Of a stretch of DNA of 64,000 nt, positions 19,339 through 63,957 are shown piece by piece (positions within the stretch are counted from its first letter, which is position 1; each line of letters opens with the position of its first letter). The notes below the pieces were generated by a model, which ran no database searches, was not told the origin of the DNA, and saw nothing but the letters and a program-made list of their open reading frames with translations. The stretch is from an uncultured Gammaproteobacteria bacterium (GTDB lineage: Bacteria; Pseudomonadota; Gammaproteobacteria; JAURND01), in assembly GCA_963714975.1 (NCBI GenBank), contig CAVQQD010000003.1, positions 576,001-640,000 of the forward strand, in the 5' to 3' direction. Made by a program: the position numbers and the translations under genes.

Positions 19339-22038
19339 CTATTCTTTACTAACTGCTTCCTGGATACATTCAAAAGTACGGATTATTTGTTTTTTTAGAT
19401 CGAGATTATGATTTAATTTTTCCATTATAGTTTTATCTTTACTCATTCTCTCAACCAACTTCTCCAGTTGATTCTGCTGATGCACATGCCCTCGTTGGCC
19501 TTTGGTATGCTGACATTGTTCTTGCAACCTGTTATATTCCTGAACCATCTTTTGGTATTTTTGCTCCTGAGCACTTAATGGCTGAGAATTCACATTGGGC
19601 TGCAATACCTGCCACCGCCCCCTAATGCTTTGACTCACAGAGGCCAGCCTAGCCGCTAAATGTCTGCCAACTTTTTGTGCCATATAGCTTACCTCAATTC
19701 CTCGACGTTTTGCAAAAGCTAACGGATAATCCAGCGCACTATCTTTTAAGGCCGAACGACCTAGATTGCGTTTCAGTTGCTTAAAATCAGTATGGGTTTC
19801 TTGACTTAAATAGAGATGACAATTCTCCCTATGTCGACTCATAGCTACATAAGTAAGATGCCGATTCCAATATTTTCCGCCAACATAAGCAAACGTATTA
19901 TCGACAGTTACTCCCTGGACTTTGTGAATTGTGGCGGCATATCCATGGGTAAAATCGGTATAGGCTTGAGGATTGAAGATAATATCATTAAGCTTACCAT
20001 CTAACCGTACCTTGATTTCACTCACATTACCGCCTTCAGTAAATTTGATGGCTTGTACTGTGGCTAATCGACCATTACTCACACCCAAACCTCGATCATT
20101 TTTTAAAAATAATATTCTATCGCCTACCGTAATTTGCATTGTCCCACGGGTAGTTTGCACTGAATATCCTTCCGTGATTTCGCCTTGGTTGATACGGGTT
20201 TGGCGGATAGTTTGATTGAGCATCATCACGTCGTCATTGCGATGCGCTAAAACTAGTAACTGTCGGATATCGTTCGACTTAGTTTGCTGAGCGATCCAAT
20301 CCTGGACGAGCTGTTGCATTGCTTGTGAAGCAGTGGCATGGGTATGGATACATTGATGCTGTTGGTAAGCATCCAGCGCTTTGCTTACCTTGCCAGTCGA
20401 CAAATTATGCGTTGCGGTTCTCTGCCAAGCTTGCTGTTGGCGATAAACGGTTTGCAATTCAGCAAATCCCACGCGTTCTAATAAAGCACGAAAACTGGCT
20501 CCGGGTCCTACGGGTTGTAGTTGTTGGGGATCACCCACTAATACTAATTTCGCACCAGCTTGCTGCACCGCTTTGATCACCCCATGCATCGTGCGCACAT
20601 CGGTCATCCCCGCCTCATCCATGACCACCACATCATTTTTCTGCATTTGCAATGTGCCATATTGCAAGGCGGATAAAAAAGAATGAATGGTGCGGCTGGG
20701 AATGCCCACGTCTTTGGCCAGACCATCAGCAGCAATTCCTGATAAAGCTACTCCCTGCACCCGTGATCCTTGGGCTTGCCAAATTTCTTTAGCGGCAGTT
20801 AATGAATAACTCTTCCCTGTACCAGCACGACCGACCAAACACGCTATAGCTTTGGGTGCAACCAAATGCAAAATGGCTTGGCGCTGTTCTTCAGTGAGCC
20901 GTGTATGCTTGGCTAAAATTTTCTCAGCTCGGGTACATAGTTGATGAGCAGTTTTACGCAAACGATCAGCAGCGCGTTGGATTTCATTTTCTAAGCGGAA
21001 TAGATCACGGGTCGTGAAGCGATCACGACCATCTTCACCATGTCCCAAATGTAATAACTCAGGAGAATTTCGTACTTGCCATAATGCTTTGGTAAATAAT
21101 TCAGCATTTTCAATATCTTTCGACAGTGCCTTGGCAATATCTCGTTCAGTAAAGACTGCTTCATGATGGGTGATTTTCTGGAGTACCTCGGTAATTTTCT
21201 GAATACTGAATTTTTGCTTATCGCCCGCATATAATCCCAAGGCTTTACCAAGGTACTCTGTAGAAAAAGTCTCAACTTGGCTTGCTAATTTTTCCAACAA
21301 AATTCGTGGATTAGTTAGAATGCGTTTTAAATTTTCACGATCTGCTGTCGCTGATTCTTGCATAATTTCTGTGTTAATACCGCGCTGTTGCATTTCTGTC
21401 GCTGCTCGCCCACGATGGGTGGTTGGTAGCAAATCAATGCCTTGATCTTTATAGGATCGATGATCAATGCGTACTTCATGCTGATGCATACGCAAGTGAA
21501 AATTGACATACTCTGCCCATTGCTCACGCCAGGTATTCAGTAAAGTTTTATTATTCCAATCTCGATTTTTGCCACCAAAACCAGTATTCGTTAATTCACG
21601 CATGGTGAGCATCACATGCACATGGGGATTATTTTCTTCCCAATGTACGCTCCAATCCACCACCATACCGCGCAATACAAATTGATCGTGAATATATTCA
21701 CGCGCTAAATTAATTGCTTGTGCCTGGTTTAATTCAATGGGCAAAGCAAATTCAATTTCACGCGCTACTTGCGCATCAACTCGTTTTTCACCAGCTTCTA
21801 CCAAATTCCACAACTGCTCAGCAGCATTATCGGATTGCACCATGTCTCGCAACCAAATAGGAGCATTCTCGGGAATACTAATAGCGCTCGAAATAACATT
21901 GGGCTTTTTACGATAATCTTGCACCTTGGCTAAACGTTGATCGTACATTTTAGCCGCACGACGATAGGCGCTGCTGGCCACAGCGCTTTGGCCTTTTTTG
22001 CGTGAGATCGTTTTTACGGTGAAGTGAAATAGTGCCAT
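19339..22038 (-). CDS. traA: Ti-type conjugative relaxase-helicase TraA (MobA/MobL plus RecD-like)
   Basis: SAVASSAYR, REIEFALP.EL, NPHVHVML, IDHRSY; GRAGTGKS, DEAGM, GYAATIHKVQGVT, YVAMSRHR. Confidence 0.95.
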   Translation of the reverse strand: MALFHFTVKTISRKKGQSAVASSAYRRAAKMYDQRLAKVQDYRKKPNVISSAISIPENAPIWLRDMVQSDNAAEQLWNLVEAGEKRVDAQVAREIEFALPIELNQAQAINLAREYIHDQFVLRGMVVDWSVHWEENNPHVHVMLTMRELTNTGFGGKNRDWNNKTLLNTWREQWAEYVNFHLRMHQHEVRIDHRSYKDQGIDLLPTTHRGRAATEMQQRGINTEIMQESATADRENLKRILTNPRILLEKLASQVETFSTEYLGKALGLYAGDKQKFSIQKITEVLQKITHHEAVFTERDIAKALSKDIENAELFTKALWQVRNSPELLHLGHGEDGRDRFTTRDLFRLENEIQRAADRLRKTAHQLCTRAEKILAKHTRLTEEQRQAILHLVAPKAIACLVGRAGTGKSYSLTAAKEIWQAQGSRVQGVALSGIAADGLAKDVGIPSRTIHSFLSALQYGTLQMQKNDVVVMDEAGMTDVRTMHGVIKAVQQAGAKLVLVGDPQQLQPVGPGASFRALLERVGFAELQTVYRQQQAWQRTATHNLSTGKVSKALDAYQQHQCIHTHATASQAMQQLVQDWIAQQTKSNDIRQLLVLAHRNDDVMMLNQTIRQTRINQGEITEGYSVQTTRGTMQITVGDRILFLKNDRGLGVSNGRLATVQAIKFTEGGNVSEIKVRLDGKLNDIIFNPQAYTDFTHGYAATIHKVQGVTVDNTFAYVGGKYWNRHLTYVAMSRHRENCHLYLSQETHTDFKQLKRNLGRSALKDSALDYPLAFAKRRGIEVSYMAQKVGRHLAARLASVSQSIRGRWQVLQPNVNSQPLSAQEQKYQKMVQEYNRLQEQCQHTKGQRGHVHQQNQLEKLVERMSKDKTIMEKLNHNLDLKKQIIRTFECIQEAVSKE

Positions 22039-22059
22039 CGTTCCTTGCCTGTTAGCACC

Positions 22060-22090
22060 ACATTGCCGCGCAATGTATAAGTGCGCATTT
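22060..22090 (+). promoter_or_regulatory. Candidate MOBQ-type oriT
   Basis: Inverted repeat ACATTGC-CGC-GCAATGT followed by ATAAGTGCG/CATTT, like the RSF1010/Ti nic motif TAA(G/T)TGCG/CCCT; lies between divergent traA and traC/D. Confidence 0.75.
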
Positions 22091-22257
22091 CAAAAAAATG
22101 ACGTTCGGTGTGATACGAATTGATTATAACCACTAGTTTTATGAAAAGAGCATTTTGCACGAAATCTCAACATAAATTGATTTCAAATGGATTAGGATAA
22201 GCCTACTTAACTGGGAATTCTGGCTGTCCAGGACAATACATTTTTACGGAGAAAGAT

Positions 22258-22569
22258 ATGAGAAACTATAGCGACAAATTGACGCAATTAATTTCCAAAA
22301 CCAAAGCCTTGGAAACCAAGAAAGAAAATCTTATTACTAAACGGAAAAATGAAATCGCCCTGTTAGCAGCCAATTATGAATTGCTCACTGTTCCAGATAC
22401 TATTCTGCAAGGTGCATTTTCTGAAATTTCTGAGGCGATGAAATTAAAATCACCTAAAATAAAGCAATGGGAGGCTATTGGTTTAAAAACCGCCTCCTTT
22501 TCCCAACAGCTCAACTCAGCCACTAAAGAAAATCCAAATTCAATTATTACGTCTCCAGCAAAAATATAA
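22258..22569 (+). CDS. TraC/TraD-like conjugal accessory protein
   Basis: Coiled coil plus ILQGAF...KQWEAIG; divergent from traA, upstream of traD. Confidence 0.6.
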   Translation: MRNYSDKLTQLISKTKALETKKENLITKRKNEIALLAANYELLTVPDTILQGAFSEISEAMKLKSPKIKQWEAIGLKTASFSQQLNSATKENPNSIITSPAKI

Positions 22570-22576
22570 TCGACTC

Positions 22577-22807
22577 ATGCTGCAACAACGCAAACAAGAA
22601 ACTCGTCGCAAGATTCAATTAGGTGGCTTGATAGTCAAAGCCGGCTTGCAGGATGAATCAACGGCCGTGCTGTATGGACTATTATTAGAAGCTGCAGAAT
22701 TATTGGAAAGTTCCAATGCATCTAAAACTCGCCAACGTTGGCACATTAGCGGAGATGTGGCTTTCAGCTTAGAGAATAAAAAAATAAATAGGGTATTGCA
22801 TTATTAA
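22577..22807 (+). CDS. traD: Ti-type conjugal transfer protein TraD
   Basis: RKQETRRKIQLGGLIVKAGL...LYGLLL...W...G. Confidence 0.9.
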   Translation: MLQQRKQETRRKIQLGGLIVKAGLQDESTAVLYGLLLEAAELLESSNASKTRQRWHISGDVAFSLENKKINRVLHY

Positions 22808-23184
22808 GAAAGTCTGAGGATAATGTCACTGCGGATATGACAGGTAGTTCACACCTGCCATACCCTGGCCACAACAAAAATCTAAATTGGAGATTTTCAT
22901 CATGGTTGCAACCATTTTAGCTTATCGTGTGTTCGCGCAAAACAGCTTTTTGCACTTTCTCACTCCACTTAAACTATTATTTTGCCTTGTTCAGGCAAAT
23001 TTAAGGGCTATTTCATTTAAATCCTCGCAGACCATGATGGGTTGTGGTGTGGGATAGCTTTTGGGGATGGTTTGGGCAGTGAGGAATTGCGAAAGGCTGG
23101 GTAGTAGAATGGTAGGGGTGGTTATAGTGGAGCAGCGGGCTCCGCTGCTCTGCTCTAATCTTTAAGCCTCTACCATTCCTACCC
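22796..23184 (+). ncRNA. Structured leader/sORF element, copy A (51-aa ORF at 22902-23057)
   Basis: Collinear homology to 63533-63908: promoter, two leader hairpins, sORF and 3' hairpin. Confidence 0.6.
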
Positions 23185-23262
23185 ACGAACGCATATGTCT
23201 GATGATTTCCAATTTCTGTTGTGTTGCACATTCACTTTCTTATAACAACACAGGAGCATTCT

Positions 23263-23688
23263 ATGAATAAAACTGAAAAAACTACTCCCATCGCACGAAT
23301 TTTATTAGTTGAAGACAATTTAATGTGCGGAAAGGCACAAAAGGGATTGTTGGAGTCTGAGCATTGTCAGGTAAATCTAGCCACTACCGCGGGCGATGCC
23401 TTAGGTAAAATTGAAAAAGGAAATCTCTATGATTTCGCGGTGATTGACCTTGGTCTTCCGGATCTGAGTGGCTTAGCATTAGCGCGAATTATTCGCAGGT
23501 TCCCTGATAAAATTAGCACGCTACCTATTATCATTTTAACCGCACATGGCACTGAAGCACATAAAAAAGAAGCTCGGGAGATTGGCTGTAATGGTTTTTT
23601 ATTTAAGCCACTGCTCGGAGAAGGATGTGAGGAATTGGTTAAGCATTTTGTACTATCCTACGATCAAGATTATTTTATGGAAAACTAA
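23263..23688 (+). CDS. Single-domain response regulator (CheY-like)
   Basis: ILLVEDN, IDLGLPDLSG, PIIILTA, FKP. Confidence 0.92.
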   Translation: MNKTEKTTPIARILLVEDNLMCGKAQKGLLESEHCQVNLATTAGDALGKIEKGNLYDFAVIDLGLPDLSGLALARIIRRFPDKISTLPIIILTAHGTEAHKKEAREIGCNGFLFKPLLGEGCEELVKHFVLSYDQDYFMEN

Positions 23689-23689
23689 T

Positions 23690-24109
23690 ATGAACCATCA
23701 TGTACTCAAGATCCCTTTTAAACCAGCAGACATTGCACAGCTTGTTGAGTTATTTGGGAAAACCTTTCAATATTATTGCCATCACCCTGGAAAAATTTCC
23801 AGGGTTGATGCGCAGGGATTTCTAACTCACCTCAACACTGTAGTAGGCCTCAGTTTGACGACGATATTGGCACAACAAGATTTAATTGCAGTAATTAGAA
23901 AATTAGTCAATCGCTACTTGCGTTATTATCCTTTTTATCAACATCCCAAAAAATCTAAATTATTAGCATCGACCGTAGTAGACCTAGTCTGTTGTGGTAC
24001 CGATCTATTACAGGATATTGGCAAAGCTTATTATGGTCATGACCTTCTCAGAGCACTAGAGCAATGCATCATGCATATGAAAATTATAATTTTAGCATCT
24101 GTGCAATAG
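23690..24109 (+). CDS. Hypothetical protein
   Basis: ATG directly after the response regulator stop; no motif recognised. Confidence 0.45.
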   Translation: MNHHVLKIPFKPADIAQLVELFGKTFQYYCHHPGKISRVDAQGFLTHLNTVVGLSLTTILAQQDLIAVIRKLVNRYLRYYPFYQHPKKSKLLASTVVDLVCCGTDLLQDIGKAYYGHDLLRALEQCIMHMKIIILASVQ

Positions 24110-62629: not shown

Positions 62630-63403
62630 ATGAAACTTATTGCTGTGGGTTCTACCTCTCTTGTTTCTGCTATCCAGTGTGCCGCTCACTCACTAGCCTC
62701 ACAGCTGCATTTACCTTACATTCCCCCCACCTGCACCGATTTTAAATATTTACTCGTACTCACGGACCAACACCTAGAACTACACCAAGTCGGTTCGAAG
62801 ATGAAACCCTTAGTAGTGGATTTCCTGAGTCCTAGTCTGATTTATCGGCGTCAGCACAGCGGTAAGCGGCAGTTGTTAGCGCGGGCTGTGGGGGTAGGGA
62901 AGCAGCAAGGTAAAGGGATTTCGGTATTGGATGCGACAATGGGTTTAGGAGAAGATGCGTTTGTGCTCGCCAGTTTGGGCTGTCGGGTGCAGGGTTTTGA
63001 GCGCTCGCCGGTGGTGGCGGCGTTGTTGCAAGATGGTTTGCGGCGGTTATTTGCCAGCGAGAGTTTCGAGGATCTGGCGCTTGCGGTTACGCCGGGTGAT
63101 GTGAGGGATTATTGGCAGTCTTCTTCTGAGCCGCCTGATGTCGTCTATTTAGATCCGATGTTTCCACCGCGGCAGAAAACCGCATTAGTGAAAAAGCAAA
63201 TGCAGTGGCTACAAGATTTGTTACAGGATGAAGCGGATGATGCAGAGGAATTGTTACAGCTGGGGTTAAAGTGGGCTACGAAGCGAGTGGTGGTGAAACG
63301 GCCGCGGTTGGCTTTACCGTTGGCTGGGCTGAAGCCAGATTTGGTGCTGAGCGGGCGCAGTGTGCGATTTGATGTATATTTTAAAACAACCCCCTCTCCC
63401 TAA
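62630..63403 (+). CDS. rsmJ: 16S rRNA m2G1516 methyltransferase
   Basis: VLDAT.GLG.DAFVLA, ERSP, VYLDPMFP, KRVVVKRP, RFDVY. Confidence 0.93.
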   Translation: MKLIAVGSTSLVSAIQCAAHSLASQLHLPYIPPTCTDFKYLLVLTDQHLELHQVGSKMKPLVVDFLSPSLIYRRQHSGKRQLLARAVGVGKQQGKGISVLDATMGLGEDAFVLASLGCRVQGFERSPVVAALLQDGLRRLFASESFEDLALAVTPGDVRDYWQSSSEPPDVVYLDPMFPPRQKTALVKKQMQWLQDLLQDEADDAEELLQLGLKWATKRVVVKRPRLALPLAGLKPDLVLSGRSVRFDVYFKTTPSP

Positions 63404-63506
63404 CCCTCTCCCACCTTCCCTCGCTGACGCTCGGGCGGGGGAGAGGGGATATAGTGGAGACTCCCTCTCCCCCGCCCGAGCGTCAGCGAGGGAAGGTGGG
63501 AGAGGG
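63404..63506. repeat. REP-like doublet with perfect 44-bp inverted arms
   Basis: CCCTCTCCCACC...GGGAGAGGG at 63404-63447 and its reverse complement at 63463-63506. Confidence 0.85.
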
Positions 63507-63532
63507 GGTCTGAAGTTCCTTTTAAAAAACAG

Positions 63533-63908
63533 TTGCTAGATTAAAATAATCTGAGGATAATAAGCGCGTGCGGTAGGTGCTGAAACACCTAGTCGCACGC
63601 TAACCACTGGAATCTAACGAAGGAGATTCAACAATGGCTGTTGTCAGTTTAACGCATCTTGCGTCCGTGCAAAACAGCTTCAATTATTTTTCTCTCACGT
63701 GTCACTCGTTCGTGGTATTTCCATTGTCAAATCAGAAGGCTATCTGCTTTAAATCCTCGCAGCCATTGTGGGGTGGTAGGGTAGCATTTTGTGACGATTT
63801 GGGGTGTGGGAGGAGGATGGTGAGGTTGGGTCGATAAAGTGGCAGAGGTAGCGGTGGCGGGGCAGCGATTTGATCTCCTGCTCTGTCATCTCTTTAATCT
63901 CTGCCACT
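63533..63908 (+). ncRNA. Structured leader/sORF element, copy B (67-aa ORF at 63634-63837)
   Basis: Collinear homology to 22796-23184. Confidence 0.6.
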
Positions 63909-63957
63909 GATACTCCTTAAGATTTCTTGGTTACTTATGTCGTCGTTTCTGCGTCTC

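Follow-up and report, generated by a model that had tools for sequence, protein, structure and literature searches.

Bacterial regulatory upstream open reading frames (uORFs) and leader peptides include mgtL/mgtA, tnaC, and ermCL, and in the RNA phage MS2 the translation of the coat gene opens the start of the replicase gene. Regulatory uORFs have also been reported for topAI-yjhQ, with toiL in its 5′ leader (PMC12121999), and for a Salmonella Mg2+ transporter (PMC8092293). Here, we analyzed a repeated leader element with a small open reading frame (ORF), two copies of which, A1 and B1, lie in a 64,000-nucleotide (nt) stretch of DNA from an uncultured gammaproteobacterium (GenBank assembly GCA_963714975.1, contig CAVQQD010000003.1, positions 576,001 to 640,000), called the window below. 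In the preliminary description of this DNA, A1 and B1 had been presented as two collinear copies sharing seven features and had been read either as a type I toxin–antitoxin (TA) module or as a long regulatory leader of the downstream response regulator. All seven features are present in the sequence, and the two copies turned out to belong to a far larger family. The data fit the second reading and give no support to the first one.

We somewhat favor the view that the element represents a new family of long rod-like 5′ leader RNAs, of the kind that acts in cis and carries a regulatory uORF. It starts from four observations: the family itself, its covarying fold, an open but neutral frame, and the linkage to signaling genes. 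Like the described regulatory uORFs, the element has a short ORF before the presumably regulated gene and a Shine–Dalgarno (SD) sequence within a structure, and the act of translation would be decisive. Unlike them, the ORF is much longer (61–75 codons), folds on itself into a rod, and is present in about 30 copies per genome. The element is unusual for its kind in its length, its self-pairing rod-like ORF, its copy number, and its tie to synthase, kinase, and receiver modules.

Approximately 32 loci of the leader family were found in the genome that contains the window (2.56 Mb in three contigs), several of them being truncated copies or fragments. The count was built up from the A/B copies through an A+B profile and a profile of a third group to a covariance model. 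The nhmmer search with A1 or B1 as the query found ten copies, which form subfamilies A (four copies) and B (six copies), and the weaker matches of the A+B profile constituted a third, more divergent group. The profile of this group marked 29 places and the copy C5x, and the covariance model added two further loci; the other labels used are C, D (seven copies), and E (three copies). The A1 unit corresponds to positions 22796–23225 of the window and the B1 unit to positions 63533–63933. Comparison of the flanks demonstrated that the repeated unit starts at most about 15 nt 5′ of the −35 box and extends through the downstream gene. The leader is about 350–460 nt long across the family, and a full copy comprises a sigma-70-type promoter, at least one 5′ hairpin, an SD sequence and a start codon placed partly within a hairpin, then the ORF of 61–75 codons, whose stop codon lies at the base of a long 3′ hairpin. 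A unit that begins at a promoter and contains a gene is unlike a miniature inverted-repeat transposable element; the comparison with such elements and with the ends of insertion sequences (IS) concerned this organization.

The leader did not correspond to any RNA family catalogued in Rfam. In Rfam 15, no family reached the gathering threshold for either the window or seven further copies, tRNAs being the only matches elsewhere, and at E ≤ 10 only chance matches of the microRNA type to the hairpin appeared (the best of 20 bits versus a threshold of 86). The leader resembles OLE, GOLLD, ROOL, raiA, and T-box RNAs in its conservation, its length of several hundred nucleotides, and its covariation-backed fold, but it differs from them as it consists mostly of one long imperfect duplex that contains the ORF and matches no family of Rfam 15. 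A T-box or riboswitch identity was rejected on the lack of an Rfam match. In the literature on cyclodipeptide synthases (CDPSs), on uORFs and long-range coupling, or on DUF3050, no such leader was found, which is not a proof that it is unpublished.

The fold is backed by covariation in two separate alignments. The sense strand of A1 folded with −163.8 kcal/mol (z = −10.1 versus shuffled sequences) and was 33 kcal/mol more stable than the antisense strand (−130.6 kcal/mol, z = −6.4); the difference stems from the many G–U pairs and suggests that the structure forms in the plus-strand RNA. For eight full A/B copies, RNAalifold gave 99 pairs, with 96.6% of the cells paired versus 44–50% when the 3′ partners were slid by 1–3 columns, and with double changes at 27 pairs versus 4–7 in the slid controls. 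None of the 500 column shuffles attained the observed values. The alignment of eleven C/D/E copies gave 89 pairs, 93.2% paired versus 40–49% and double changes at 36 pairs versus 5–13 after sliding. Both alignments contained one or more 5′ hairpins and an SD region that either lies in a small local hairpin or pairs with the sequence beyond the 3′ hairpin. Further on came a small hairpin at codons 9–13, a conserved AAAAC block, long helices linking the two halves of the ORF, and finally the long 3′ hairpin. Helix 3 of the A/B alignment, which joins the SD region to the sequence 3′ of the 3′ hairpin, was paired in 100% of cells, with double changes in three of its seven pairs. Two copies from related genomes adopted a similar shape (z = −6.2 and −6.6). 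In four D-type copies (C2:904484-905015, C3:63416-63946, C3:72364-72894, and C3:175235-175767), inserted palindromic repeats of approximately 80–90 nt interrupt the apical loop of the 3′ hairpin, the remaining fold being undisturbed.

Judged from the substitution pattern, the ORF is kept open while its peptide evolves neutrally. An SD-led ORF of 61–75 codons was present at 24 out of 30 places examined in this genome, and C2x, a copy that has lost its 5′ part, provided a 25th; the exceptions were A1 (51 codons), C4x (37 codons), the insertion-cut A4, and two fragments. The stop codon invariably lay at the base of the 3′ hairpin or slightly within it. Within the subfamilies the length of the ORF is invariant, without insertions or deletions (indels), despite up to 107 variable columns out of 222 (48%); in A3 two compensating one-base indels alter 17 residues, and the frame is restored. 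When the observed number and kind of substitutions were placed at random sites, the frame remained open in only 5–15% of trials per subfamily pair, and there are at least five such subfamilies.

The variable columns were distributed evenly over the three codon positions. The five groups from this genome gave 21/19/23, 36/36/35, 11/11/9, 7/10/9, and 13/12/10 (total 88/88/86), and the five groups from relatives gave 10/15/14, 16/21/25, 17/17/20, 13/10/11, and 10/14/10 (total 66/77/80). The receiver gene behind the B copies, which is under strong purifying selection, gave 11/8/67. The ratio of nonsynonymous to synonymous variation (pN/pS) in the real frame was 0.66–1.18, a range that the two shifted frames shared, and codon periodicity was absent in all ten subfamily groups. 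These results bear on the explanation that the element is an ordinary small-protein gene, whose 61–75-residue product works with the receiver or the kinase and whose fold is incidental. The conserved SD sequence, start codon, ORF length, and stop position are what such a gene would display, and the peptides share short N-terminal motifs, (A/V)Y ... (K/Q)(T/N)(L/S)F. These motifs coincide, however, with a conserved RNA hairpin (helix 7), the codon periodicity is missing, A3 has exchanged its 17 residues with the frame kept, and in G093, a genome outside the family, the ORFs of both copies comprise only ~32–33 codons. In Pfam, no family matched the small-ORF peptides. We consider a functional small protein the least probable of all the explanations discussed here. 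The frame, the SD sequence, and the start and stop positions are retained while the peptide drifts, which argues that the passage of ribosomes matters and not the peptide.

Selection acts on the nucleotides of the leader. In the B type, about 13% of the leader columns vary versus 50% of the third codon positions in the receiver gene; the leader thus changes far less than the silent sites of its neighbor, indicating a constraint on the nucleotides themselves. Unpaired blocks are conserved even across genera. Such conservation argues against a portable promoter followed by an mRNA-stabilizing leader that contains no switch, whose 5′ hairpin and rod would shield the transcript, and whose ORF stays open only to avoid polarity from a premature stop. 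An SD-occluding fold would also be odd in a purely stabilizing element. On the other hand, a 5′-terminal hairpin lies no more than about 10 nt from the inferred start site in all types, the module begins at its promoter and is placed before different genes, and the apical loop of the 3′ hairpin accepts the repeats inserted in the four D-type copies. We give this explanation a small chance.

Every full copy in this genome is followed by a receiver gene or a signal-synthase operon on the same strand. Among the 29 places, six precede a four-gene operon, 18 directly precede a single-domain receiver gene, and five are truncated copies, fragments, or places with no ORF behind. The operon encodes, in this order, a CDPS, a histidine kinase with PQ-loop and PAS domains, a receiver, and a 114-aa protein of no known family; the synthase was assigned by its match to PDB 5OCD (E = 6.5e-53). 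The single-domain receivers are devoid of a DNA-binding domain. By eye, four D-type receiver genes open with a remnant resembling the N-terminus of the synthase. The nearest receiver homologues, P0002 and P0003, are 44–46% identical, and at two P0003-like loci the receiver is located directly behind a histidine kinase or its remnant, without the leader.

A cis-acting leader in which the translation of the ORF matters, rather than its peptide, is in our opinion the probable explanation, though far from an assured one. Each leader would be cotranscribed with the downstream gene, starting at a sigma-70-type promoter of its own. In the untranslated RNA the two halves of the ORF would be paired with each other, and the SD region and the early codons would be paired with the sequence beyond the 3′ hairpin, so that ribosomes entering the ORF would have to melt the rod. 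In the synthase-linked copies this melting may free the ribosome binding site (RBS) of the synthase gene, resulting in translational coupling through a long-range structure. The effect in the receiver-linked copies would more likely concern the mRNA stability or the transcription read-through. Thermodynamic predictions for all four CDPS-linked copies paired 7–16 of the 19 bases around the synthase start with the ORF region, and the predicted mean unpaired probability of the RBS rose from 0.16–0.29 to 0.24–0.42 with the ORF held single-stranded. In a DUF3050-linked copy of the related genome G004, ORF codons 9–13 were predicted to pair with the SD sequence of the next gene. In these five copies (four of four CDPS-linked ones and the DUF3050 copy) the predicted pairing of the downstream RBS inside an upstream ORF resembles the arrangement in MS2. 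The differences are that such pairing was not predicted in 17 out of 18 receiver-linked copies and that the upstream ORF has no conserved product.

Several points weigh against the leader acting through translation of its ORF. In the 17 receiver-linked copies just mentioned, which include A1 and B1, the downstream RBS did not pair with the ORF and its accessibility (0.34–0.61) was unchanged upon opening of the ORF; hence, the coupling fails to explain most of the copies. The distance from the leader to the receiver gene is inconstant (~60 to 170 nt), and inserted repeats are tolerated there, which speaks against an exact structural switch at this site. No alternative terminator/antiterminator pair was detected in the four scanned copies (A1, B1, C7x, and C1x). 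Each consensus structure was scored on the very alignment from which it had been obtained, and the aligned copies represent few independent lineages. A weak selection on the peptide could in principle hide beneath the strong RNA constraint. Finally, the transcription and the ends of the leader, the translation of the ORF, and the direction of the effect are all predicted from the sequence.

Apart from the terminator/antiterminator pair, the leader differs from the described regulatory uORFs in that no stalling motif was found and no conserved run of codons for one amino acid was seen in 42 peptides inspected by eye. An attenuator of the trp or his type was rejected on the lack of such a pair and of a regulatory codon run. 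Between the leader and the gene no canonical terminator was found in three of the four scanned copies (B1, C7x, and C1x); in A1 the inner stem of the 3′ hairpin was flagged as terminator-like, with a poor U tail. These data are relevant to a further explanation, namely a stand-alone trans-acting or dual-function RNA that, for example, titrates a CsrA paralog or serves as the output RNA of a signaling module. The terminator-like stem of A1, the closed rod with paired ends preceding unrelated genes (CDPS, DUF3050, receivers, and csrA), the variable spacer to the next gene, and the downstream RBS unaffected in 17 of the 18 receiver-linked copies all speak for it. Against it speak the absence of a canonical terminator behind the leader in B1, C7x, and C1x, the repeated unit that always takes in the downstream gene, and the RBS of the following gene, which is predicted to pair with the leader in the synthase-linked copies. 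Some copies lack a GGA motif at the SD hairpin, and the idea of a CsrA site was abandoned for that reason. Altogether, we regard a stand-alone RNA as rather unlikely.

A more specific role of the leader can be proposed, albeit as a speculation with poor odds. Make-and-sense signaling modules might contain a feedback loop that ends at the leader RNA, either with the phosphorylated receivers, their 114-aa partner, or a CsrA-type protein acting on the RNA, or with the RNA itself sensing the synthase product or the translational capacity.

The type I TA reading of the preliminary description was based partly on a promoter-like motif on the antisense strand just inside the ORF. This motif does exist. 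The minus-strand pattern TTT(G/A)C(G/A)–16 nt–TAA(A/G)(A/C)T had its best match at the same place in 36 out of 43 copies (scores 6–9 of 12), with its −10 box ending 5–12 nt inside the ORF. Its conservation across the family makes an antisense RNA on the leader possible. In a TA module a toxic peptide would be encoded by an mRNA held inactive by 5′–3′ pairing and SD occlusion, and a short antisense RNA starting just inside the ORF would block its translation. The mRNA of about 400 nt, the long-distance pairing of its ends, the occluded SD sequence, the antisense motif, and the many chromosomal copies recall hok/sok and symE/SymR. Some C-type 5′ hairpins, when read on the minus strand, carry a U-rich tail, and one of the two such hairpins scanned was flagged as terminator-like. 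However, unlike in hok/sok and symE/SymR, the peptide is neither conserved nor consistently hydrophobic, and no Rfam match was found. A 19-residue Kyte–Doolittle mean of 1.6, as in a transmembrane segment, was reached by only four of 42 peptides versus 15 and eight of 42 in the two other frames, so the out-of-frame translations are as hydrophobic or more. The neutral codon-position counts and the pN/pS values typical of shifted frames also argue against a toxin, as does the lack of a Pfam match for the peptides. All full copies are inherited together with a codirectional downstream gene, 24 of the 29 places preceding a CDPS operon or a receiver gene, and a lone toxin locus was never encountered. 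The antisense motif is weak and is located in blocks that are also constrained by the sense fold. A TA-like module is therefore very unlikely.

The leader, considered again as a cis-acting element, was also found outside this genome. The covariance model R1, built from the 5′-most 150 nt of the C/D/E copies, gave 20 matches (E from 1.4e-12 to 6e-3) in five out of eight genomes of the same family and in one out of 141 genomes belonging to other families within the class. The layout of these copies was as in the genome analyzed, and 17 of the 20 matches had an ORF of 57–78 codons, one copy being truncated. Homologues with a conserved structure and frame thus exist both in this genome and in its relatives. 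The copies of the relatives were recovered by the covariance model only. The DNA search with B1 matched none of 40 relatives, and that with the C7x leader gave in 60 relatives only three matches of 25–46 nt (E 0.003–0.007), taken as chance. Exact patterns of two A/B-conserved blocks, specific to the A/B types, had no matches in either genome contigs or metagenome contigs of the searched collections, in which the genome analyzed here is possibly not included.

A DUF3050 gene follows 11 of the 20 copies of the relatives; two of these genes were checked in Pfam (E = 5e-76 and 1.4e-68) and the rest were assigned by eye on their N-terminal similarity. MgoB of the Pseudomonas syringae mgo operon is a member of the DUF3050 family (PMC3298696). 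In one leader–DUF3050 unit of G004, genes for a PAS histidine kinase and a receiver-containing protein come next. The CDPS or DUF3050, kinase, and receiver neighbors suggest a common theme in which a putative small-molecule synthase is combined with a PAS kinase and a receiver. The region upstream of the CDPS homologue in G004 displayed neither an unusual fold (z = 0.14) nor a profile match, the leaders of this genome being located elsewhere. In G093, a copy with a ~33-codon ORF (L060, G093:C91, 475–666) directly precedes a gene for a 64-aa CsrA paralog (PF02599, E = 4.9e-21). An AbiEi/AbiEii type IV TA pair lies behind a leader–DUF3050 unit in another relative (L079, G003:C6, 2811–4146).

The search of sequencing runs with window positions 22258–23700 returned no RNA run; it returned four DNA runs of soil or other metagenomes from four studies. 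Six short metagenome contigs matched parts of positions 22649–23124, the region of the TraD-like gene and the leader, at 95% identity or more (sampled-word shares 0.05–0.12), so the organism or its close kin is probably present in such samples.

Within the window, all features of A1 and B1 are located on the plus strand. Both promoters, described previously as TTGC(AT/TA) and GATAAT boxes 17 nt apart, were confirmed. In A1 (22796–22824) the −35 box TTGCAT occupies positions 22796–22801 and the −10 box GATAAT positions 22819–22824; in B1 (63533–63561) TTGCTA is found at 63533–63538 and GATAAT at 63556–63561. The B1 promoter was reported by the promoter scan, and that of A1, which was under the scan threshold, was read from the sequence. 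The sense transcripts would start near 22831 and 63568, respectively, about 6–8 nt 3′ of the −10 box. The GC-rich 5′ terminal hairpins follow at 22833–22865 in A1, as predicted in the minimum free energy (MFE) fold, and at 63566–63600 in B1, based on the fold and covariation. The covariation proposed for this hairpin holds, its pairs (helices 1–2) being kept through double changes. Next in A1 is a C/A-rich linker with the SD region (22870–22899, GGAG at 22889–22892), which forms either the 5′ strand of the closing stem or a local SD hairpin. The RBS-occluding hairpin suggested earlier is accordingly upheld only in part: the local AAUCU/AGAUU pairing can cover the SD sequence, but the MFE and consensus folds pair the SD region with the sequence beyond the 3′ hairpin.

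The start codons at 22902 and 63634 are 40,732 nt apart, and the conserved blocks share this offset, as had been noted. The A1 ORF (22902–23057) has 51 codons and a stop and the B1 ORF (63634–63837, SD AAGGAG at 63620–63625) has 67 codons and a stop; the reported identity of 16 out of the first 47 residues was reproduced by counting by hand in the alignment. The 51-aa form is due to a one-base deletion near 23047, specific to A1, its sister copies having 67 codons; without the deletion the family frame in A1, which has no codon periodicity, would reach the TAG at 23102–23104 and also comprise 67 codons. Two soil-metagenome contigs covering the A1 ORF have an extra base at 23047/23048, the exact site at which A1 differs from its sister copies. 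A programmed frameshift at the GGUUUUUU run was considered, but the zero frame offers no canonical slippery heptamer.

The A1 rod (22944–23097, helices 6–12) arises from pairing between the C/A/U-rich 5′ half of the ORF and its G/U-rich 3′ half, with many G–U pairs. The G/U-rich tract leading into a long 3′ hairpin was recovered in both copies. The A1 hairpin (23098–23184, helices 13–14) starts at the family stop codon and carries the UCUUUAA bulge; the B1 hairpin (63838–63908) is backed by the fold and covariation. The 3′ strands of the basal and closing stems of A1 were placed by the MFE fold at 23186–23223, with ORF codons 9–12, the SD region, and the linker as their partners, and the 3′ strand of the B1 closing stem was placed by the fold at 63913–63933.

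Downstream of the A1 leader and within the repeated unit lies the gene of a 141-aa single-domain response regulator (23263–23688; PF00072, E = 5.2e-20), a receiver gene under strong purifying selection. It is followed by a gene for a 138-aa protein (23693–24109) with no Pfam match and no known family, which shares 42% identity with the 114-aa protein of the operon (BLASTP, E = 1e-32). A1, trailed by a receiver and a homologue of the 114-aa protein, thus looks like the operon minus its first two genes. The receiver gene of B1 begins past the end of the window, at approximately position 64086.

On the 5′ side of A1, an 899-aa ORF on the minus strand (19339–22807) resembles by eye a conjugative relaxase, and a 76-aa ORF of the TraD family (PF06412) was found at 22577–22807; A1 therefore appears to be situated at the edge of a mobilization module. 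In the copy A2, a residual piece of the TraD C-terminus has survived on the 5′ side. Directly 5′ of the B1 promoter, positions 63389–63510 form a GC-rich palindrome (CCCCCTCTCCC...GGGAGAGGGGG) about 120 nt long.

Elsewhere in the genome, the CDPS operon is present six times (places 4, 9, 13, 17, 18, and 28) and at least three of these operons are broken, with the synthase gene split or truncated at C3:802001, C2:960886, and C2:1177085. A 402-aa ORF resembling by eye the IS200/IS605 TnpB cuts A4 within the leader (C1:103700-104065), and a 402-aa TnpB-like ORF of the same type cuts the receiver gene behind the intact E3 leader (C3:470486-470958). An IS4-like ORF truncates the receiver gene behind C5x. 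Behind the receiver gene in the B4, B5, and B6 units (C2:1032740-1035286; C3:851191-853200) there are ORFs of 320–332 aa starting with MTHELKTKNKNTRADFDRPW, and a related ORF lies upstream of B2; these ORFs may be Rpn-type nuclease/transposase genes.

Long structured bacterial RNAs absent from Rfam are uncommon, and the one described here, of about 400 nt and backed by covariation, occurs in approximately thirty copies in a genome of 2.56 Mb. With the covariance model R1, the element can be annotated in related genomes. If the leader controls the genes behind it, the family would provide a clean natural case of a uORF selected solely for being translated. The leader stands before operons that join a putative small-molecule synthase (CDPS or DUF3050) to a PAS sensor kinase and a receiver, as well as before orphan receivers in unusually high number; under the same condition, it would offer a direct way to study the switching of this signaling network. 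Should the feedback role be true, approximately thirty promoters would be placed under one post-transcriptional signal, which would constitute an RNA-based output for two-component signaling, with a new class of large structured RNA as its carrier.

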